Assembly (NCBI GenBank): GCA_964502425.1
Contig: CAZCWV010000002.1
Span: 1-33,254 of the forward strand
Origin: an uncultured Candidatus Peribacteria bacterium
GTDB lineage: Bacteria > Patescibacteriota > Gracilibacteria > Peribacterales > Peribacteraceae
Direction: 5' to 3'
Length of the DNA: 33,254 bases
Shown: positions 216 through 9,353 of the stretch, one piece after another
How positions within the stretch are numbered: position 1 is the first letter of the stretch
Layout: the number at the start of each line of letters is the position of its first letter
Translations under genes and position numbers: made by a program
The notes under the pieces: generated by a model
The model's input: the letters and a program-made list of their open reading frames with translations, nothing else
Database searches by the model: none
Told to the model about the DNA's origin: nothing

Positions 216-2312
216 TCACTTGCACTCGTACTCGCAGGAGGAGCGCGGGTAGACGCTATCCCGGGACGTGAGCGGGAAGGCCGAACAGAGGAGCGAGCGC
301 AGGCCCATGCCGGAAGGGCAGAGGTAGGGGGAGACCGTTGCGGGGATGGCCGGGCAGATCGTCTTGCAGACCGGGGAACCATTCTGCTGTCCGCAGAAGG
401 GGACGCAGTATGAGGTGGCGGGGACATTGGAGGAGGGAGTGGGGACCGAAGGGGGGAGGGGAGGCGGGGGGGGAGAAGGAGATGTGTCGGGGGGAGAGGA
501 AGGACCGTTGGGATTGCAGGTGAGCATGACGTCGGTCATGCGCCGAGCCAGTTCGCCGGACACGCCATGTGCCACGGTCTCGAGCGAGATGGGGGACGTG
601 CAAGCGCCGATAGCGAAGACGAGTTGGAAGCTTGCAGACTGGTTGGCGGAGAGGACAAAAGGAGCCCCATTCCCGATCGTGGAACAGTCCACGGTATCCT
701 GGCTGCCCGCGCGGAGCGTGCAGTGTGCGTCAGAACGGTTCGGTATGAAGAACAGCCCCGGGGGCACGGTGTGGGTAACGAGGAGGGCGTCGCTGGGGCT
801 CGCGCTACGGTTCACCGCCATAATGAGGAGCGTGATGGTGCCTTCCTCCTGGGTGGACGGCATGCCCACGTGCACGGAGATGGGGCCGCTGGCAGCGGCA
901 AACGCCGCGCTGGTGAGGAGTGATGCTTCGTGGCGGCGGGAGCGAGTCAGCCGTTCGACGATTGCCCGCAAAAAGCCCAGGGCGCTCTCTTCATGCGGAA
1001 TGCAGGTGTAGGAACAGGCAGGTTCTCCCTGCAGGTCGCAGGCGAAGGACTGGACGCGTTCCCCCGATGAACAGAGGAAGGCGTTCGGCGTGGGGAGGGA
1101 GGGGAGATTGGCACACACGATCTTGCATCGGCGGTCCCCCTCGTCCCCCGTGCAAAAGGCGGAACACTCGCTTTGGCGCAGCGTCTGATTCTGCGCGGCG
1201 GAAGAAGAGGAGCGGGGGCGGGAGCTGGAAGAAGAGCGCGACGAACGGCTCGACGCTCTGCGCGAGGAAGACGAGCTCTGGGCGGATTCCTCGCACCAGC
1301 AGCATTCTCCGCCGCAGGAATCGGTGCCGCAGGATCCACTGCATCGTAGGAAGGACCCCGAGGGGCACGTGGGGATGGTGAGCGTGCAAGCATTGCCATC
1401 CATTTCGTAGGAGCAGCGCGCGGGCAGGATGCACTCCCCCATCTCTTCATCGCTGCACGCCCCCCCATATGCAATCTGCACGCCCGCCCGGTCCGCCCAA
1501 CAAGCATTGACGTACGTGCTGCCGTCATTGCCGCAGACCGCGAACGTGTCATCTCCGCAGATCTCTTCCGAGGGGGGAGAAGAGTCATGGGGGATACAAC
1601 GGCAGCAGAAGCCGACACAGGCATCCGTCCCGCAACTGCCGTCGCACGACAAGTCCCCGTCCACGCAGTCGATCGATGTGGAAACGCAGGCATCGCCGAT
1701 GAGCAGGCGGTCGCACTGGTAGGATGATTGACATTCCTCCCAGTTGTCTGGGGGGGTCCAATCGCCCGCAGACGAGGACGTACAGACGCCCCCATGCGCA
1801 ACTTCCGTGCCGGCGCAGAAGGCTTGGCATTGATTCCCGTACGTGATGCCGTCCGCGCCGCACACCGGCAGGTACTCCATCGTGCAGAGGCAATCTTCCG
1901 GGGGAGGGGATGAGACGGGGGTGCAGATGGAGGGGCTTCCCTCACAGATCCAATCCTGTTCCACGTAGCACCACATGCCGCACCCGTCACCGTCCATAAT
2001 GTTCCCGTCATCGCATTCTTCGTACGTCTGCACTTCGCCGTTGCCACACACCGCGTCGGCTTCGGCCGGCGTGCAGATGGATGGGCTCCCTTCGCACGTC
2101 CACCCCGGTTCGGGGGAGCACAGGTCGGTACAGCCGTCTCCTTCGTCCACATTGCCATCGTCACACTCTTCTCCCGCTTCGACGATGCTATTCCCGCACA
2201 CATTGAGGATAAGACCTTGGAGCCGTATTGGCCGTTCTCCCTGCATCCAGATGAGGACAGCCAGGAAGGGAATGCCGATGGCGGGGATGGCCAACGCGCG
2301 GACGCTGCGCAT
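216..2312 (-). CDS. Secreted or anchored cysteine-rich multidomain protein with Myxococcus-type Cys-rich repeats and Kazal-like domains
   Basis: 698-aa ORF with an N-terminal hydrophobic signal/anchor ([17 protein letters not shown]). Two [23 protein letters not shown] repeats and two Kazal-like units ([29 protein letters not shown]). Two CxxSCGTDxCxxxCC modules, a Ser/Arg low-complexity linker, a Pro-rich linker, and two copies of a further Cys module. Confidence 0.85.
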
Positions 2313-2464: not shown

Positions 2465-2842
2465 TCACTTCAATAACATCTTCATCAGCCAGTTCCCGAT
2501 TCCAAACACGAGGATCACCGCCAGCCAGCCCGGGAGTCCTCCCCCGATGCGCAGCGTGACGAGTGCGGGCTCCATGTGCTGCGCGATCCACACCGTGAGC
2601 CATACGAAAATGCCGTTCACGAGGATGAAGGCGAGGAGCGTGGCGACGAGTTTGAGGGGAAGCGTGGCCACGTCCAAAAGTGGCCGGACGAGAATGTTCA
2701 GGAGCGTCAGGAGCGCCCCCACGATGACCGATGCCGCAAAGCCGCCGCCGAGGACGAACGCCTCCGGGACGAAGGCAATGAGCGCCCACACGAGGGCGAC
2801 GTTCAAGGCAAAACGGAGGGCGAGGCGGAGAGGGAGGGACAT
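2465..2842 (-). CDS. Small 4-TM membrane protein, DUF360 / phage-holin-4-like family
   Basis: 125 aa, four hydrophobic spans. The sequence style (GALLTLLNILVRPLL...LVNGIFVWL) is typical of the YvlD/DUF360 family. Confidence 0.7.
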   Translation of the reverse strand: MSLPLRLALRFALNVALVWALIAFVPEAFVLGGGFAASVIVGALLTLLNILVRPLLDVATLPLKLVATLLAFILVNGIFVWLTVWIAQHMEPALVTLRIGGGLPGWLAVILVFGIGNWLMKMLLK

Positions 2843-2975: not shown

Positions 2976-5900
2976 TCAAATTTTTTCGAACCTAAACCTC
3001 ACCTTCTCCCCGTTCAGTTCCGCATCGTGCCAGGGGCCGAGGTTCTCCGCGAACGTCGCGTTCGTCTCTTCCGCGATCATCGTGCCGCAGAAGTGGAGCA
3101 CGGGGGCGGCGCCCTCGATCTGCAGCGTAATCCGATCCGCGATGCCCAATCCGGCCGCCTTCCGCTCGCGCTGCACCGCGCGGATGAGGTCCCGTCCGCA
3201 CCCTTCCAGCGACAGTTCCTCCGTGAGGCCCGTATCCAAGCTGACGACGACGCCCTTGTCGCCGGCGACGTTGCGTCCTTCCTTCCCCACGTAGACGACG
3301 GTCGCCTCGTCGGAGGTGAGTGCCTCGTCGAGGATCACGATGACGCCGTTCTTCCCCTGCGTAAACTCGCCGCGCTTGCCCGCCGCGATCACATCCTGCA
3401 CGCGCGCGCCGAGGCGGGGGCCCGCTACGCGCGCGTCCACCCGGGCGATGGGCATTCCCAGTGTTCCCGGGTCATCCGTCACGTCAATCCGCTTCACGTT
3501 CAATTCTTCCTGTAGCAGCGCCGTTTCCTCATCCGTGAGCGGTTCCTCCCGCCCTTCGGCTCCGCTCAGGGACGCGGGCAGGGCGACGGACGCTGTGGCG
3601 AGGGGCTGGCGGAGCTTGACTCCGGCGTCCGCGCGGAGCTTGAGCCCGAGCGAGACGATGGTGCGGAGCAAGCGGTTCTTGCGGAGGAGCTCTTCCTCTT
3701 CCTCCGTCAGCGTCCGCGTGGTCGGCCAGTCCGTGAGGTGGATGGAGCCGTGGTCTTCACGTACCAAGTTCAGGTAGATGGCGTCCGTGACGAACGGGCA
3801 AAACGGCGCGAGGAGTTGGGACATCGTCAGTAATACGTCGTAGAGGGTGGCGCAGGCGGCTGTGCGGTCCTCCTCCTGTCCTGCGCTCATGTTGTCACCA
3901 GTCTCATGGATGCTCCCTTTACCGGCGAAGCGGCGGCGCGAGAGGCGCACGTACCAGTTCGTGAGGCTGTCGATGGTGTCGAACAGTTCCCCGCAGGTGG
4001 CCGAGAGGTCGTAGCGTTCCATTTGCTCCGTCATGCGGTTGACGAGGTCCTGCACCTCGGCGCGGATCCAACGGTCGAGCGGATGCGCGGAAGCGGCGCG
4101 CGTCTCGCGCGGCTCCCATCCCGCCGCGTTGGCGTACGTGACGAAGAAGGCGTAGGCGTTCCAGAAGGGGAGCAGGACGTTGCGCAGCGTCTCCTCCACG
4201 CCCTTCTCCGAAAAACGCATGTCCTCGCCGCGCACGGCGGGGGAGCTCATGAGCATGAAGCGGACGGCGTCCGCCCCGTGGCGCTCCGCCACCTCCAGCG
4301 GCTCGGGGTAGTTCTTCAGGCGCTTACTCATCTTCTTCCCGTCCTCGGCCAGCACCGTGCCGTTGACCACGCAGTGGAAGAACGCGGGGCGGTCGAAGAG
4401 GGCGGTGGAGAGGACGGTGAGGGTGTAGAACCACCCGCGCGTCTGATCAATCCCCTCCGCGATGAAGTCCGCGGGGAAGCCCGGCGGAAGCTCCGTCCCC
4501 TCCGCCTTCTTCTGCACGTGCTCGATGTCGAAGGGGAAGTGCGACTGCGCGTAGGGCATGGCGCCGCTCTCGAACCAGCAGTCCAGCACGTCCGGTATGC
4601 GGCGGAAGAGCGGGGTCGGTTTTCCCTCCTCGGCGGGCGCCGCTTCCCACGTGATGGGGTCCACTGTCTCCTTGTGCAGGTCGAGTTGCGCCCCCGCCTC
4701 GTGGTCCCAGTAGAACGTCTGCGTGTCCGCGTACTCCGGGTACGGCTGGCGCGTGAGCTTGGCGGGGTCTTCCTTCGTGAAGTAGTGCTTGAGGTTCAGC
4801 AGGGGATCGGCGTGCGTGACCACCACGATGTGCTCGCCGCGGTGGCGGGGCAGTACGTCCTCCAGAAACGACTTCACGCGCACCTGCACCTCCTGCCACG
4901 TCTCCATGCCGGGGAAGTGGTAGATGCTCTCCATGTCGTTCGTCTGCATCTTGTGCGCCCGCCGCGCCTTGACGAAAGCCAGGTCGGAGAAGTCCACGCT
5001 CTTGCCCTCATACTCCCCGAACTTCACTTCCCGCAGCCGCTCATCCACGGCGATGCCGGCGCCCGTCTGCTTGGCCACGGCTTTGGCCGTCTGTTGCGTG
5101 CGGCAGAGGGGAGAGGCGTAGATGCGCGTCACGTCCTGGGTCTTGAGGAACACGCCGGCCTCCTTCGCCTGCTTCTTCCCGCGCGCGGTGAGGTCCGTCC
5201 CCGGCACTTCCCCCTGGTAGACGGGCTTCACGTTCCCCGCGCTCTCGCCGTGGCGCAGGATCGTCACCTTTGTGAAACGTTCCGGCACTCTTTGCATCAG
5301 CTCATCCCGGCTCCCGATCACCTCCACCTGCCCCGTCTCCGCGCAGCGCCAGATGGGGAGCGGCGTCCCCCAGTACCGGTTGCGGGAGATCGCCCAATCG
5401 CGCGCTCCCTCCAACCACTTGCCGAACCGCCCGTCGCGGATGTGCGCGGGAACCCACTCCGTCTCCGCGTTCACCTGGAGCATCCGCTCCTTGATCTTCT
5501 CCACGGCCACGAACCACGAGGACGTGGCGTAGTTCAAGAGCGGCGAATCACAGCGCCAGCAGTGGGGGTAGCTGTGGCGGAAATTCTCCTGCTTCCAGAC
5601 GAGGCCCTTGGCGCTTACGTCCGCAAGGAGTTTCTTCTCCCCGTCCTTTACGAATGATCCCGCGTACGGTCCGGCGGTCTCCGTAAAGTGTCCCGTCATG
5701 TCCACGTCCATCACGATGGGGAGGCCGTTCTTCTTTGCGGCTTCCATATCCACTTCCCCGTACGATCCGTTGATCGTCACGATGCCTGTTCCCTCCCCGG
5801 CTTCCACATAGTCCCCCGCGAAGATGCGGTACACGTTTGGGTTCTCCTTCACCTCAGGGATGTCACCGTACCACGGCGCAATGTGCGCGTAGCGTTTGCC

Positions 5901-6836
5901 GACGAGAGCGCTCCCCGGGAATTCCTCCAGAACTTCGTACCCTTCCGTTCCCTTCATTACGTCCGCAACGCGGTCCTTGATCATGATGAGCCGCTCGTCG
6001 CCCGCTCGGACCTTTGCGTACGTCGCATCCGGTTTGACGGAGAGCCCCATCGTGGAGAGCGTGCTCCAGGGCGTCGTTGTCCAGGCAAGGACGTATGTCC
6101 TGCGATCCTTGGAATCCTTGGCATCGTCGGCATCCGTCAGGAGGAACTTCCACGTCACCGCAACATCCGATACTTCCTTATATCCCTGCGTCACCTCGAA
6201 GTTGGCGAGTGGCGTGACGCAGCGGGGGCAGATTTGCATGGCTTTCTTCCCCTCATACAGCAATCCCTTCTCATACAAGCTCTTGAACGTCCACCAGATG
6301 CTCTCCATGTAATCGGGGTCCATCGTCCGGTAGTCCCAATCCATATCCACCCAGCGGCCCATCCGTTCCACGGCCTTGCGCCACTCCTTCGTGTAGCGCT
6401 GCACCGCGGCGCGGCAGAGGCCGTTGAAGGCCTTCACCCCCATCTCCTCAATCTGCTGCTTGGACTGGATGCCGTGCTCCTTCTCGATCTCGTACTCCAC
6501 GGGAAGGCCGTGGCAGTCCCAGCCGAAGCGCCGCTGCACGGCCTTGCCGCGCATCGTCCGGTAGCGGGGGATCACGTCCTTAATCGTTCCCGCCAGGATG
6601 TGGCCGTAGTGGGGGAGACCGGTGGCGAAGGGGGGGCCGTCGAAGAAGCTGTACTCAACGCGCTCCTTCCCCTTTACCCTGCCCAGGGGGATTTTCCGCC
6701 GCTTCCCCGTCTTCTCGCTCACCCCGCGGCGCCGGTCAATGGACCGCTGGAAGGTGTTCTCCTCCTGCCAGTACGTGAGGATCGTGCGCTCAAGGTCCGG
6801 GAAGGACTGTTTAGGATCGACGGGGTCAAAGGGCAT
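2976..6836 (-). CDS. ileS: Isoleucyl-tRNA synthetase (eukaryote-like type 2) carrying an internal histidine-phosphatase domain insertion
   Basis: Class I motifs HYGH and KMSKR, plus GWDCHGLP, WAISRNRYWGTPLPIW and DCWFESGAMPYAQ. I moved the start to MPFDPVDPKQSFPDLE (ATG 6834-6836). The 55 extra N-terminal residues in the ORF track run into the AT-rich promoter region. Confidence 0.95.
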   Translation of the reverse strand: MPFDPVDPKQSFPDLERTILTYWQEENTFQRSIDRRRGVSEKTGKRRKIPLGRVKGKERVEYSFFDGPPFATGLPHYGHILAGTIKDVIPRYRTMRGKAVQRRFGWDCHGLPVEYEIEKEHGIQSKQQIEEMGVKAFNGLCRAAVQRYTKEWRKAVERMGRWVDMDWDYRTMDPDYMESIWWTFKSLYEKGLLYEGKKAMQICPRCVTPLANFEVTQGYKEVSDVAVTWKFLLTDADDAKDSKDRRTYVLAWTTTPWSTLSTMGLSVKPDATYAKVRAGDERLIMIKDRVADVMKGTEGYEVLEEFPGSALVGKRYAHIAPWYGDIPEVKENPNVYRIFAGDYVEAGEGTGIVTINGSYGEVDMEAAKKNGLPIVMDVDMTGHFTETAGPYAGSFVKDGEKKLLADVSAKGLVWKQENFRHSYPHCWRCDSPLLNYATSSWFVAVEKIKERMLQVNAETEWVPAHIRDGRFGKWLEGARDWAISRNRYWGTPLPIWRCAETGQVEVIGSRDELMQRVPERFTKVTILRHGESAGNVKPVYQGEVPGTDLTARGKKQAKEAGVFLKTQDVTRIYASPLCRTQQTAKAVAKQTGAGIAVDERLREVKFGEYEGKSVDFSDLAFVKARRAHKMQTNDMESIYHFPGMETWQEVQVRVKSFLEDVLPRHRGEHIVVVTHADPLLNLKHYFTKEDPAKLTRQPYPEYADTQTFYWDHEAGAQLDLHKETVDPITWEAAPAEEGKPTPLFRRIPDVLDCWFESGAMPYAQSHFPFDIEHVQKKAEGTELPPGFPADFIAEGIDQTRGWFYTLTVLSTALFDRPAFFHCVVNGTVLAEDGKKMSKRLKNYPEPLEVAERHGADAVRFMLMSSPAVRGEDMRFSEKGVEETLRNVLLPFWNAYAFFVTYANAAGWEPRETRAASAHPLDRWIRAEVQDLVNRMTEQMERYDLSATCGELFDTIDSLTNWYVRLSRRRFAGKGSIHETGDNMSAGQEEDRTAACATLYDVLLTMSQLLAPFCPFVTDAIYLNLVREDHGSIHLTDWPTTRTLTEEEEELLRKNRLLRTIVSLGLKLRADAGVKLRQPLATASVALPASLSGAEGREEPLTDEETALLQEELNVKRIDVTDDPGTLGMPIARVDARVAGPRLGARVQDVIAAGKRGEFTQGKNGVIVILDEALTSDEATVVYVGKEGRNVAGDKGVVVSLDTGLTEELSLEGCGRDLIRAVQRERKAAGLGIADRITLQIEGAAPVLHFCGTMIAEETNATFAENLGPWHDAELNGEKVRFRFEKI

Positions 6837-6967
6837 GCGGAAGGGGGGCAGGATCAAGGGGATGCGGAAGAGTTCCACGTACGCAACGATGCATATTGTA
6901 TGGGGAGAGTGTACAGAATTTTGTTGATACTTGCTGGGCAGAGAGATGGAAAAATTGATATCAGTAT

Positions 6968-6996
6968 TTGACAATATCCACGTGAGAAGGTACAAT
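6968..6996 (+). promoter_or_regulatory. Consensus sigma70-type promoter TTGACA-17 nt-TACAAT
   Basis: ttgaca at 6968-6973, a 17-nt spacer, tacaat at 6991-6996. The ORF-track ATG at 6995 lies inside the -10 box, so the downstream ORF more likely starts at ATG 7016. Confidence 0.6.
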
Positions 6997-7015
6997 GTCA
7001 CTACGTTTTTTTTCT

Positions 7016-7418: not shown

Positions 7419-9353
7419 ATGATGGACATTGAGCGCCAGTTACATGAGGCCATGGAGTACATGTCTGCGAATGACAGGGAGAGGGTGCTGGTTGCCCTCG
7501 AGCGGTCAAAGCTGTGGCACGAAGGGCAGAAGCGTATCAGCGGTGACCCCTACGTCATCCATCCGATCACCGTTGCCCTGTACTTATGCAAGCTGCGCGC
7601 GGGGAGGGAAACAGTGATCGCAGCTCTTTTGCATGATGCCGTTGAAGACGAAAAAGCTACGTTACAGCAAGTGAAGAGCGAGTTCGGGGATACGGTCGCA
7701 AAGCTGGTGGATGGAGTGACGAAGCTCTCCAAACATCATTATGAAAGCGGGCGGAGGGCGGAACGACAAGTGGCTTCCCTGCGCAAGCTGATGCTCACGG
7801 CGAATGACGATTTACGCGTGATCTTCATCAAGCTCGCGGACCGTCGGCACAACGTCGAAACCCTTGCCGCTCTTCCCCCGGAGAAGCAGCAGCGTATCGC
7901 CCACGAGACGTTGGAGATCTACGTTCCCTTCGCCCGTATCGTGGGCTTGTGGGAATTGAAGACGCTCTTCGAAGAAGCCTGTTTCCCCATCGCGTACCCT
8001 CAGGAGAGTGCGGAATGGCATGGCACCATTGCACGATTGCGCCAGTCCGTGCAGGAGGAACGCAACGCGTTCATTCAGCGGCTCAATGAGGAAACATCGG
8101 ATGATGTCCAGGCGGAGCTCCGTCCCATGACGGATTATGAAGTCTACCAGAAAATGCAGGGGATTATTGATCGCCTCGGGAGCGCCAGTACCATTGATAG
8201 TGTCCTCATCAAAGTCCAATCGCAGTCGCCCGTCGATTGCTACCACGTGATGGGGGAGATCCATGCACGGTATCCCGTACGGTCCGGTACGTTCCACGAT
8301 TACATCAGCGCCCCCCAATCCAACGGGTACCGCGCCCTCCATACGACGATCTTCCTCTCGCAGCGTCATGAAGTCCGTCTGCGTATCCAGACGCAAGAGA
8401 TGTACGAATTTGCGTCGACGCGGATGCTCTCCACGTGGCTTGGCGACCAGGGGAATGACATCTACCAAGCGTTGAGCGGATTGCACGCTGTGCAAGGGAA
8501 CCACGACCAGTACGTCAATGATCTCAAGCGGACGGTCTTGGAGAAGCGCATGAGCATCTTCACGACCTCAGGCGATATCGTATCGTTGCCTCTCGGCGCC
8601 ACGGGCGTGGATTTCGCCTTCGCCATCAATCCGGACCATGTCTCCTCTCTTTCGGGCGTACGCGTGGACGGGGAATTGCACGAAGCGACGTATCTGCTCA
8701 AGCAAGGTGATACCGTTGAGCTCGTTCTCCTGGAGAATGGCAAGAGCGAGCTTCGCAGCATGTGGGTGGATAAGGTGACGCTCGTCGGCGCCCGGGAAAC
8801 CTTGCGCAAGTCGCTCCGTTACTCCCCGAAGAATAAGAGAAGGGAGGAAGGAAGGCATCTGCTGGAGGTGGCGTGCAGCAAGCGCAGATTACCATTGTGG
8901 TGGTTGGTGCATTTCCCTCCCATGCAGGGCGATCTCGCCCGTGCGATGCAAAGGAAATCGTTTGAAGCGTTGCTCGAGGACGTCGGGAGTGGCCTTGTGC
9001 CGGTAGGTACCGTGGCAGATGCGTACAGGAATCTCCTGATTGCGCCCACGAGCTGGAAAGTCATTTTATTGAAGTTGTTCCACCTCCTTCCCCGCATGCG
9101 GGTCCTCAATAAAGATGCGACGGTCATGGATGTAGAGATCTATGCGCAGGATCGCCTCGGTCTCATCCATGACATTGCGCAATGCTGCGTCGACCGGAAT
9201 ATCAATATGTCGCAGTTCTCCGTCTATGCCACTCCCCATGGGGGCTCCTTTTACAAAATGCGCGTGGAAGTGAAAAATTTTGATCAATTCAGCGATCTCT
9301 ACGATTCGCTTGTCCAGGTGCCAAGTATCAGGAGTGTATTGAGGAAGAGATAA
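7419..9353 (+). CDS. relA/spoT: Long RelA/SpoT homolog (HD hydrolase - SYN-like - TGS - ACT); hydrolase motifs intact, synthetase motifs degenerate
   Basis: HD domain: GQKRISGDPYVIHP, LLHDAVEDE, KLADRRHNVETL. SYN-like region: FHDYISAPQSNGYRALHTT, but RLRIQT in place of EVQIRT. TGS: FTTSGDIVSLPLGATGVDFAF. C-terminal ACT-like segment: VEIYAQDRLGLIHDI. Confidence 0.9.
   Translation: MMDIERQLHEAMEYMSANDRERVLVALERSKLWHEGQKRISGDPYVIHPITVALYLCKLRAGRETVIAALLHDAVEDEKATLQQVKSEFGDTVAKLVDGVTKLSKHHYESGRRAERQVASLRKLMLTANDDLRVIFIKLADRRHNVETLAALPPEKQQRIAHETLEIYVPFARIVGLWELKTLFEEACFPIAYPQESAEWHGTIARLRQSVQEERNAFIQRLNEETSDDVQAELRPMTDYEVYQKMQGIIDRLGSASTIDSVLIKVQSQSPVDCYHVMGEIHARYPVRSGTFHDYISAPQSNGYRALHTTIFLSQRHEVRLRIQTQEMYEFASTRMLSTWLGDQGNDIYQALSGLHAVQGNHDQYVNDLKRTVLEKRMSIFTTSGDIVSLPLGATGVDFAFAINPDHVSSLSGVRVDGELHEATYLLKQGDTVELVLLENGKSELRSMWVDKVTLVGARETLRKSLRYSPKNKRREEGRHLLEVACSKRRLPLWWLVHFPPMQGDLARAMQRKSFEALLEDVGSGLVPVGTVADAYRNLLIAPTSWKVILLKLFHLLPRMRVLNKDATVMDVEIYAQDRLGLIHDIAQCCVDRNINMSQFSVYATPHGGSFYKMRVEVKNFDQFSDLYDSLVQVPSIRSVLRKR

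Follow-up and report, generated by a model that had tools for sequence, protein, structure and literature searches.

A histidine phosphatase domain nested in the isoleucyl-tRNA synthetase of a Peribacterales bacterium

We found that the isoleucyl-tRNA synthetase (IleRS) gene, ileS, in a 33,254-nucleotide stretch of DNA from an uncultured Candidatus Peribacteria bacterium (contig CAZCWV010000002.1 of GenBank assembly GCA_964502425.1; the whole stretch is referred to as the window) encodes a complete, in-frame histidine phosphatase domain, which we call D1, inserted in an otherwise intact synthetase. This is what the original prediction, made from the sequence alone, had claimed, and the agreement goes far beyond chance. 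When we compared D1 by itself with Pfam, it matched PF00300 (His_Phos_1) with E=3.9e-39 and 134.8 bits (gathering cutoff 21.7) over profile positions 2-182 of 194, and in the full protein the order of Pfam domains is two tRNA-synt_1 (PF00133) halves flanking PF00300, followed by Anticodon_1 and DUF5915. In an alignment made up of the window protein and the 120 relatives that match it best, the catalytic set of the phosphatase is kept in 121 of 121 sequences. The comparisons described below indicate that D1 is real, old and vertically inherited. The coordinates of all features are collected in Table 1.

The protein that hosts D1 is a type-2 (eukaryote-like) IleRS. As a whole it scores 798.7 bits on TIGR00392 (ileS), above the curated equivalog cutoff of 621.4, and this match falls in two stretches with D1 between them. 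The top matches in the PDB are human and yeast IleRS, Priestia megaterium IleRS2 and Thermus thermophilus IleRS. The synthetase motifs WGTPLPIW, DCWFESGAMPYAQ and KMSKR are all intact and the synthetase looks functional; every catalytic and flanking motif quoted in the original prediction is present in one continuous frame; the mechanically called open reading frame (ORF; 2976-7001, minus strand) is uninterrupted and ends in a single terminal stop. Because relatives begin at MFDPVDP in the alignment, we take the ATG at 6836 as the true start of the window protein, which gives 1286 aa. The ORF extends a further 55 codons upstream of this ATG to a GTG (6837-7001, minus strand); this extension is noncoding, as homologues start at ATG 6836. 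The window protein looks like the probable housekeeping IleRS of a Peribacterales bacterium (Peregrinibacteria, Patescibacteria/Candidate Phyla Radiation (CPR)). An exact look-up found no record of the same protein sequence elsewhere.

To place the insertion we used a structure-sequence alignment with human and yeast IleRS, in which human (489 to 493) and yeast (490 to 498) IleRS have only 3-8 residues where the window protein has 201; the spacing of about nine residues that the original prediction gave for eukaryote-like IleRS agrees with this. The block of about 200 residues originally placed at 4686-5288 is there, with coordinates one codon off (4683-5285). It had also been described as lying inside the catalytic core. 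The published boundaries of connective peptide 3 (CP3) enclose the insertion point at yeast 490/498 (ScIleRS 459-526, PMC7955072; CaIleRS 473-534, PMC7191050), so D1 is inserted in a CP3 loop and not in the Rossmann core proper: the insertion in IleRS stands and its location is revised. CP3 is a small subdomain whose topology differs among IleRSs (PMC7955072, PMC7191050), including CaIleRS, TtIleRS and SaIleRS, and is the most variable IleRS subdomain (PMC7191050). D1 starts 28 residues past the CP2-CP3 linker ARDWAISRNRYWG and ends 117 residues before KMSKR. In yeast, the corresponding linker (ScIleRS 453-465) lines the pocket that accommodates reveromycin and the 3' end of the tRNA (PMC7955072), and we infer that D1 is close in three dimensions to the tRNA 3'-end pocket and the KMSKS loop.

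The junctions of the insert read MQRV/PERF and GAQL/DLHK. An intein is expected to have Cys, Ser or Thr at its N-terminal junction, His-Asn plus a nucleophile at its C-terminal junction and a Hint fold. We rejected an intein or another mobile insert, in line with the original prediction, as the junction residues (Pro518 ... Leu718/Asp719) are unlike splice motifs and the His_Phos fold accounts for the whole insert. Recent horizontal acquisition of D1 was rejected as well: there is no anomaly in GC content or in GC content at third codon positions (GC3), the D1 value of 0.92 being inside the range of 0.77-0.94 within the gene.

We then asked which kind of histidine phosphatase D1 is. When D1 was modelled alone (mean predicted local distance difference test score (pLDDT) 89.9), its alpha/beta fold matched the fold of PhoE and of the 2,3-bisphosphoglycerate-dependent phosphoglycerate mutases (dPGMs) in Foldseek, with template modelling (TM) scores of 0.80-0.82 to PspA (4IJ6) and PhoE (1H2E, 1EBB), followed by glucosyl-3-phosphoglycerate phosphatase, dPGMs, riboflavin-pathway histidine phosphatase and TIGAR. 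Among the curated NCBIfam models for dPGM, PspA, CobC, GpmB and SixA, D1 is far under every cutoff. Its top match is the archaeal short dPGM model NF038349, and SixA is among the weak matches. We rejected membership in the dPGMs (NF038349, 103.2 vs 225 bits; TIGR01258, 37.2 vs 81.7 bits; NF010713, 34.6 vs 305 bits) and in the PspA-type phosphoserine phosphatases (NF045917, 98 vs an equivalog cutoff of 350); PspA is the closest solved structure, and D1 is not a member of its family. IMG automatically names some relatives of the window protein 'isoleucyl-tRNA synthetase/bisphosphoglycerate-dependent phosphoglycerate mutase'; because D1 misses the dPGM cutoffs, the phosphoglycerate mutase part of that label is unsupported. 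Taken together, the family scores and the model indicate that D1 is a PhoE/PspA-like short phosphatase of the small-phosphomonoesterase type.

The catalytic set of branch 1 of PF00300 (the RHG His, two Arg, the second His, Glu and Asn) is fully present in D1, and the corresponding residues R528, H529, N535, R579, E603 and H675 are each invariant in 121/121 sequences. The length from anchor to anchor is 210-219 residues in 118 of the 121 (212 in each of six sequences inspected). By the share of alignment columns that are at least 90% conserved, D1 (38%) lies above the editing domain (15%) and below the anticodon-binding domain (41%) and the catalytic core (about 60%); purifying selection on D1 is evident from these alignments. 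D1 also has a clade-specific 'cap' (VKARRAHK ... ESIYHFPGMET) that is highly conserved within Peribacterales and is missing from the one Parcubacteria-type sequence compared (P0415).

To see how D1 sits in the synthetase, we modelled residues 1-1100 of the window protein with AlphaFold2 and 60 homologues, which gave a mean pLDDT of 88.1 and a predicted TM score (pTM) of 0.85. The IleRS body of the model has target-normalised TM scores (TMt) of 0.72-0.91 to the IleRS2, yeast and T. thermophilus structures. In this context the blocks of D1 have pLDDT values of 85-98 and the two junction blocks 93-95; such junction values together with the pTM of 0.85 indicate that D1 is a fixed graft and not a floppy tether. 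The cap is modelled less well in isolated D1 (pLDDT 58-80) than in the full protein (85-89). The cap could pack on the synthetase, or the deeper alignment alone could explain the better pLDDT.

In the homologue search, PF00300 lies inside IleRS in 120 of the 120 best homologues, so the insert is common to all of these relatives from Peribacterales/Peregrinibacteria, the lineages that share it being one of the points that the original prediction had left to a search. Clade labels here and below are those given in the database records and may be imprecise. The named best homologues are mostly Candidatus Peribacteraceae, Peribacteria and Peregrinibacteria and include the complete genome of Ca. 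Peribacter riflensis; one (P0011) is labelled Kiritimatiellales. A scan based on D1 with one genome per species, which reports D1-bearing loci only, found 33 genomes with one locus each at 50-80% identity; the labels of all 33 are Peribacteria, Peregrinibacteria, Peribacterales or Patescibacteria. P0001, which at 80% identity is the nearest relative, comes from several samples and lies on at least 10 contigs; another relative, P0099, lies on 21. Since the same architecture is found on many independent contigs, samples and genomes, misassembly is excluded, and with it the chimeric join that the original prediction had wanted checked; we rejected a chimera on the same grounds, with the architecture recurring in hundreds of independent sequences and in multi-sample contigs.

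Among 1.84 billion representative proteins, nine matched D1 at E<=1e-30, all of them IleRS or fragments of it, followed by a steep drop to generic relatives at 30-40% identity. Because the nine best are IleRS and the score then drops sharply, D1-type domains appear to occur only inside IleRS. Within the 150 best D1 matches from this set, each long multi-domain host that we tested is an IleRS-like class Ia synthetase, whole or fragmentary, and the remaining matches are free tandem His_Phos proteins and one fusion of His_Phos and GNAT. No free-standing orthologue of D1 above about 42% identity was seen among these 150, and no terminal fusion of IleRS and His_Phos was seen among the relatives found. 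The free-standing relatives (P0250, P0129, P0130, P0136, P0162, P0164) include proteins with two or three tandem His_Phos domains, and one is named Woesearchaeota archaeon. The free His_Phos+GNAT fusion is a domain pair that is also found co-nested in some IleRS proteins.

We found that many relatives carry more nested phosphatases than the window protein does. We call the D1 position site A; a second position, site B, lies 20 residues past D1, between DLHK..W and PLFRRIPDVLDCWFESG. Site B holds one more His_Phos domain in 103 of the 121 aligned sequences and two more, in tandem, in 3 (106/121 in total). It is empty in the window protein, where it is a loop with a pLDDT of 69 in the model, and in 14 others; the nearest relative carries one domain there. 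Thus, the window protein is a minimal form of the family. The site-B domains keep R, H, N, R, E and H and are about 29-35% identical to D1. Among the weaker D1 matches are further IleRS proteins with 1-4 nested His_Phos domains, some of them at other positions.

To compare positions across relatives, we mapped the inserts of 256 proteins from the first two of three clades on an insert-free IleRS profile. We found four recurrent sites around KMSKS: A and B in CP3, C in the stretch from DCWFESG to KMSK, and D some 80 residues past KMSK. Counting the 256 proteins by site gave A+B in 98, D in 41, A in 37, B in 16, C+D in 12 and none in 13, plus rarer combinations. In two homologue searches, PF00300 was nested in IleRS in at least 107 of the 120 best Gracilibacteria/Peregrinibacteria-type proteins and in 120/120 of the Patescibacteria/Parcubacteria type. 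This last type, the third large clade (L034-L037, P0396-P0515; labelled Patescibacteria group, Parcubacteria and Saccharibacteria), has a site-A His_Phos that is 30-35% identical to D1, and we therefore consider the trait to be widely spread over the CPR. Site-B domains of Peribacterales and Gracilibacteria score 102-104 bits against each other and 50-68 bits to other groups, and site-A domains score 93 bits between the Gracilibacteria and Parcubacteria types. Because same-site domains from different clades are each other's best relatives, the insertions are likely to be old and vertically inherited. Separately, five relatives (P0135, P0192, P0161, P0131, P0127) have His_Phos at site C and/or D; P0127, with four His_Phos domains, lies on short contigs (<=3.9 kb).

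The same sites also hold other domains. One relative (P0340) has tandem HAD phosphatases at site C and no His_Phos; the best matches of the HAD insert include phosphoglycolate phosphatase and the pyrophosphatase PpaX, and it scores 26.5 on HAD_SAK_2 (cutoff 27.5). Several Gracilibacteria/Peregrinibacteria relatives combine a GNAT domain at site C with a His_Phos domain at site D. P-loop kinases of the AAA_33/CPT-like type are found at sites C and D; their best NCBIfam match is PSTK (38 vs 290 bits), and KTI12 also matches. A serine hydrolase, DUF559, an IS200-like Y1_Tnp transposase domain and a weak MuF_C match make up the other nested domains. The relatives with such domains (P0340, P0293, P0305, P0341, P0356, P0330, P0362, P0332) are up to 1859 aa long.

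We propose that D1 is an active phosphatase that is functionally coupled to IleRS, a reading to which we give at best an even chance. D1 would form a second active site in which a terminal phosphate is hydrolysed by way of a phospho-His529 intermediate; by homology, Arg528, Arg579, Asn535 and His675 would hold the phosphoryl group and Glu603 would act as the general acid. D1 would have been retained on IleRS since its substrate is connected with IleRS's own ligands, and it would be dispensable for the aminoacylation chemistry itself. We favor coupling because nested phosphatases occur at four sites and in up to four copies with each active site conserved, because we found neither another host nor a terminal fusion, and because one relative (P0340) has an unrelated phosphatase fold (HAD) with the same chemistry. 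The co-nested domains also favor it, because aminoacyl-tRNA is the target of relatives of the kinase and of GNAT, and the PSTK-like kinase, GNAT and serine hydrolase all belong with proteins whose targets are the aminoacyl group or the acceptor end of tRNA. An active, coupled domain is further supported by the strength of the PF00300 match, by the purifying selection on D1, by the kinship of same-site domains across clades and by the fixed graft.

One of the roles suggested in the original prediction, action on a phosphate at the 3' end of tRNA, is possible. D1 might remove a 2'/3'-phosphate or pyrophosphate from tRNA(Ile) at its CCA end, beside the synthetic site, and the same enzyme would then charge the tRNA; we offer this particular substrate tentatively, as a suggestion that is more probably wrong than right. 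Histidine phosphatases need a terminal PO3 group, and aminoacyl-adenylates, diadenosine tetraphosphate (Ap4A) and phosphoramidate antibiotics are therefore unlikely substrates, which speaks against the hydrolysis of Ap4A or of an aminoacyl-adenylate analogue that the original prediction had also suggested. On a broader and likewise doubtful reading, the IleRS of Patescibacteria would be a platform with its own repair and immunity enzymes, on which the nested phosphatase, kinase, GNAT and hydrolase act on the tRNA(Ile) acceptor end or the KMSKS loop and undo damage by phosphorylation or pyrophosphorylation, for example by RelA-SpoT-type or Hip-type toxins, before charging.

Several points weigh against coupling and against a tRNA substrate. 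The nearest relatives of D1 in sequence and structure are all small-molecule phosphatases, and the mean isoelectric point of D1 is about 7.2, the same as that of free homologues and without the excess positive charge of an RNA-binding module. Because 13 of the 256 IleRS proteins lack any nested phosphatase, charging does not require the domain, and because the DUF559, Y1_Tnp and MuF_C-like inserts look unrelated to tRNA, the loops may simply tolerate insertions. Repair of tRNA ends is not obviously specific to isoleucine. The match of the kinase to PSTK is far under its cutoff, and the HAD case is a single sequence. In a comparison with defence systems, PADLOC returned nothing for the window protein and one negligible match for a relative.

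The main rival, which we judge somewhat unlikely, is that D1 is a passenger: an ordinary small-molecule phosphatase (for phosphoserine, a sugar phosphate or 5-amino-6-ribitylamino-2,4(1H,3H)-pyrimidinedione 5'-phosphate (ARPP)) that was caught in a permissive loop of an essential, well-expressed gene of a streamlined genome, with a substrate unrelated to aminoacylation. His_Phos and HAD proteins are alternative enzymes for the phosphoserine and ARPP phosphatase steps, and an interchange of the two would explain P0340 as well. The closest proteins to D1 (PspA, PhoE, glucosyl-3-phosphoglycerate phosphatase, the riboflavin-pathway histidine phosphatase and dPGMs) fit a passenger, as do the neutral charge of D1, the standing of CP3 as the most variable subdomain (PMC7191050), the unrelated DUF559 and Y1_Tnp domains in the same loops and the existence of insert-free relatives. 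However, a passenger sits less well with one family at four sites of the same protein, in 1-4 copies with intact catalytic residues, with the lack of any non-IleRS host among the top matches and of any terminal fusion among the relatives found, although this is the simplest route for a passenger, and with a graft that is conserved and, in the model, rigid. Another alternative is that D1 is a catalytically silent structural or binding element, for example a stand-in for a lost CP3 zinc knuckle. In the alignment, the CP3 zinc ligands of T. thermophilus IleRS are missing from the window protein, which has one Cys in the region (PMC7191050), and the rigid graft would suit such a role; the six catalytic residues, invariant in 121/121 and kept also in the site-B domains, are unexpected for a purely structural domain, and we consider this reading very improbable. 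That the whole arrangement is an artefact, whether from chimeric assembly, from an intein or other mobile insertion or from decay to a pseudogene, has a negligible chance: apart from the lack of an exact record of the window protein elsewhere, nothing speaks for it, and the contig counts of the two relatives, the 33 species-representative genomes, the continuous frame, the normal GC3 and the absence of intein motifs from the junctions speak against it.

Two further readings keep D1 active and linked to IleRS with other substrates. D1 might be a nucleotide or inhibitor hydrolase at the synthetic site that takes the terminal phosphate off AMP, pyrophosphate, a nucleotide by-product or a phosphorylated IleRS inhibitor, and so pulls the reaction forward or protects the enzyme; we regard this as unlikely. 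IleRS is a known antibiotic battleground, and the type-2 enzymes MupA and MupB are mupirocin-resistant forms. The link to IleRS in particular fits such a role, as does a domain repertoire that varies by lineage as in an arms race; the co-nested GNAT, CPT-like kinase and serine hydrolase families include antibiotic-modifying enzymes, and phosphoglycolate phosphatase and PpaX among the matches of the HAD insert fit a nucleotide hydrolase. However, the need for a terminal PO3 makes aminoacyl-adenylates, Ap4A and phosphoramidate antibiotics poor candidates, we know of no phosphorylated IleRS inhibitor, and neither PADLOC nor a resistance model gave a match; we rejected the window protein as a MupA/MupB mupirocin-resistant IleRS (618 and 586 bits vs a cutoff of 1900). 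Alternatively, D1 might be a protein phosphatase whose target is IleRS itself (the Ser of KMSK being one example) or a partner protein, and which so reverses inhibition of the HipA type, as on GltX and TrpS. The His_Phos superfamily includes the protein phosphatases SixA, PGAM5 and Sts-1, SixA is among the weak NCBIfam matches, and the four insertion sites lie on either side of the KMSKS loop in the sequence. D1 is nearest to small-molecule phosphatases, though, phosphorylation of IleRS is without support, and no kinase toxin was seen in the conserved neighbourhood (the loci of the window, P0001, P0099 and Ca. P. riflensis); this reading seems to us quite improbable, less so than a silent module.

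The gain of extra domains by aminoacyl-tRNA synthetases is known, mostly as eukaryotic appendages without catalytic activity. In the present case the added part is a complete second enzyme, nested in the catalytic half of an essential bacterial synthetase; relatives have as many as four such domains, and over much of the CPR the trait has been retained and its active sites are intact. In a full-text literature search, which covers few subscription journals and is thus no proof, and in the Peribacteria genome paper, we found no description of an IleRS with a phosphatase. The statement in the original prediction that no described synthetase with an embedded phosphatase was known thus agrees with the literature searched; it does not extend to databases, in which hundreds of clusters of uncharacterised Patescibacteria IleRS with this trait are public and some are auto-annotated in IMG. 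Because the sequences are public and IMG names some of them as fusions, the nested phosphatase is unstudied rather than unseen. IleRS with a nested phosphatase is, as far as we found, a form of domain accretion in synthetases that has not been described before. If D1 serves substrates of IleRS, it would give a synthetase an accessory activity that is new, be it repair of tRNA ends, removal of a product or reversal of a toxin's action; coupling would also help explain how translation is protected in the tiny-genome bacteria of the CPR, which are often described as episymbionts. If the platform reading is true, it would be a synthetase-embedded quality control or counter-defence of a kind that we did not meet in the literature searched. 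If D1 is a passenger, it would be a case of gene economy by domain nesting, and it would correct 'phosphoglycerate mutase' calls that could distort metabolic reconstructions of the CPR.

Outside D1, the editing domain of the window IleRS departs from the usual sequence. Its motifs at 5745-5792 and 6063-6083 (minus strand) are non-canonical, with WTTTPWSTLSTMGLS and GTGIVT-INGSYGEVDM where WTTTPWTLPGNL and GTGVVH-IAPGFGEDD are usual. In the editing pocket the canonical His is replaced by Thr and the motif is altered (GTGIVTINGSYGEVDM) in 23 of the 121 aligned sequences (the window protein and 22 relatives), and the second Asp and WTTTPW are kept. The variant does not follow the presence of a second phosphatase domain among these sequences. 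The editing specificity of the window IleRS may be altered. Near the N-terminus, a Lys/Arg-rich segment GVSEKTGKRRKIPLGRVKGKERV (aa 38-60; 6657-6725, minus strand) separates the N-terminal helix from the first Rossmann strand; relatives have it in variable form or not at all, and its pLDDT in the model is below 50. Two antisense ORFs over ileS (3906-5657, plus strand, 583 aa; 5688-6971, plus strand, 427 aa) look like the usual by-products of high GC3 (0.87) and not like genes.

Table 1. Positions of ileS, of the domains and residues of its product, and of adjacent genes in the window
Feature	Position	Strand	Basis or remark
Type-2 (eukaryote-like) isoleucyl-tRNA synthetase coding sequence, 1286 aa	2979-6836	-	TIGR00392, Pfam and PDB matches; stop codon 2976-2978
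HIGH signature (HYGH, aa 76-79)	6600-6611	-	motif; invariant in alignments
CP1 editing domain (about aa 216-420), WTTTPW and variant GTGIVT-INGSYGEVDM	5577-6191	-	alignment
CP2-CP3 linker (aa 478-490)	5367-5405	-	sequence; homologous to ScIleRS 453-465
CP3 N-terminal part (aa 491-517, TPLPIWRCAETGQVEVIGSRDELMQRV), ends at insertion site A	5286-5366	-	alignment to human and yeast IleRS
Flanking motif IGSRDELMQRV	5286-5318	-	
D1, nested histidine phosphatase (aa 518-718, 201 aa)	4683-5285	-	PF00300, AlphaFold, Foldseek
D1 motif RHGESAGN	5232-5255	-	
Arg528-His529 of the RHG motif	5250-5255	-	His529 predicted phospho-accepting nucleophile, by homology to PhoE and dPGM
Asn535, last residue of RHGESAGN	5232-5234	-	predicted phosphate-pocket residue, by homology to PhoE and dPGM
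D1 motif ASPLCRTQQTA	5085-5117	-	
Arg579	5100-5102	-	predicted phosphate-pocket residue, by homology
D1 motif ERLREVKFGEYEG	5004-5042	-	
Glu603	5028-5030	-	predicted general acid, by homology
Clade-specific D1 cap (aa 622-646)	4899-4973	-	highly conserved within Peribacterales
D1 motif VVVTHADPL	4800-4826	-	
His675	4812-4814	-	predicted phosphate-pocket residue, by homology
CP3 C-terminal part (aa 719-751, DLHKETVDPITW...PLFRRIPDVL), includes site-B loop	4584-4682	-	alignment
Flanking motif DLHKETVD	4659-4682	-	
Site-B loop EAAPAEEGKPT (aa 731-741)	4614-4646	-	empty in window
KMSKR signature (aa 835-839)	4320-4334	-	motif, conserved in alignments
Anticodon-binding domain (aa 921-1080)	3597-4076	-	PF08264 E=3e-25
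C-terminal DUF5915 typical of type-2 IleRS (aa 1107-1281)	2994-3518	-	PF19302 E=5.5e-21
Rel/RSH (RelA/SpoT homologue) gene (HD, RelA_SpoT, TGS, ACT), divergent, beside ileS	7419-9353	+	domain search
Protein with four transmembrane segments, 125 aa, PF04020 ('phage holin 4_2'), directly downstream of ileS	2465-2842	-	Pfam

The window is an unremarkable piece of chromosome that encodes a secreted Kazal/DUF4215 protein, the PF04020 protein, IleRS, Rel, AhpC, UvrA, an SLH protein, RibBA and BipA. The contigs of P0001 and P0099 and Ca. P. riflensis (CP013064.1) keep the order of IleRS and the PF04020 protein, and all three have a Rel homologue at a distance of 0-3 genes upstream. This conserved Rel-IleRS neighbourhood is probably synteny within one order and not a functional link. 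The Kazal/DUF4215 protein (216-2312, minus strand) has 698 aa, is Cys-rich and probably secreted, and contains Kazal and DUF4215 repeats and long Ser/Pro-rich tracts.

D1 can be compared with free-standing and with fused histidine phosphatases. It has the size of about 200 aa, the fold and the RHG...R...E...H pattern in common with PhoE (YhfR) of Geobacillus stearothermophilus (1H2E/1EBB) and with PspA/iPSP1 of Hydrogenobacter thermophilus (4IJ5/4IJ6), to which it is 28-29% identical in the Foldseek alignments. In contrast to these free-standing small-molecule phosphatases, D1 is found only within IleRS and has its own conserved cap. The superfamily and the phospho-histidine chemistry are common to D1 and the dPGMs; the matched dPGM chains have about 229-255 residues as compared to about 200 in D1. 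In PRK07238 (RNase H/acid phosphatase, Rv2228c type) and in mycobacterial MutT1 (Nudix and His_Phos), a CobC/PhoE-like phosphatase is joined to a nucleic-acid or nucleotide enzyme, and D1 matches the phosphatase half of PRK07238 (profile 178-333, 101 bits). However, these two are end-to-end fusions with hosts other than synthetases, whereas D1 is nested, and D1 scores under their cutoffs (326 and 475). P-loop kinases and phosphatases provide the two activities used in healing broken RNA ends, as in the T4 Pnkp type of end-healing. The likeness to T4 Pnkp is one of possible working only: the nested family repertoire has phosphatases (His_Phos, HAD) and AAA_33/PSTK-like kinases, without a ligase and without sequence membership, and the window protein has the phosphatase only.

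Among synthetases, the closest curated precedent is NF040702 ('ileS_w_GNAT'), in which a type-2 IleRS likewise carries a further catalytic domain. Pfam finds no GNAT in the window protein, which scores 248 against the NF040702 cutoff of 1999 and whose extra domain is a phosphatase at site A. The second-half Rossmann region of class Ia synthetases takes lineage-specific inserts elsewhere too, such as the zinc knuckle in CP3 of T. thermophilus IleRS and, in leucyl-tRNA synthetase (LeuRS), the leucine-specific domain. In contrast to those small, non-catalytic modules, the insert here is a 200-aa enzyme, present in up to four copies in relatives.

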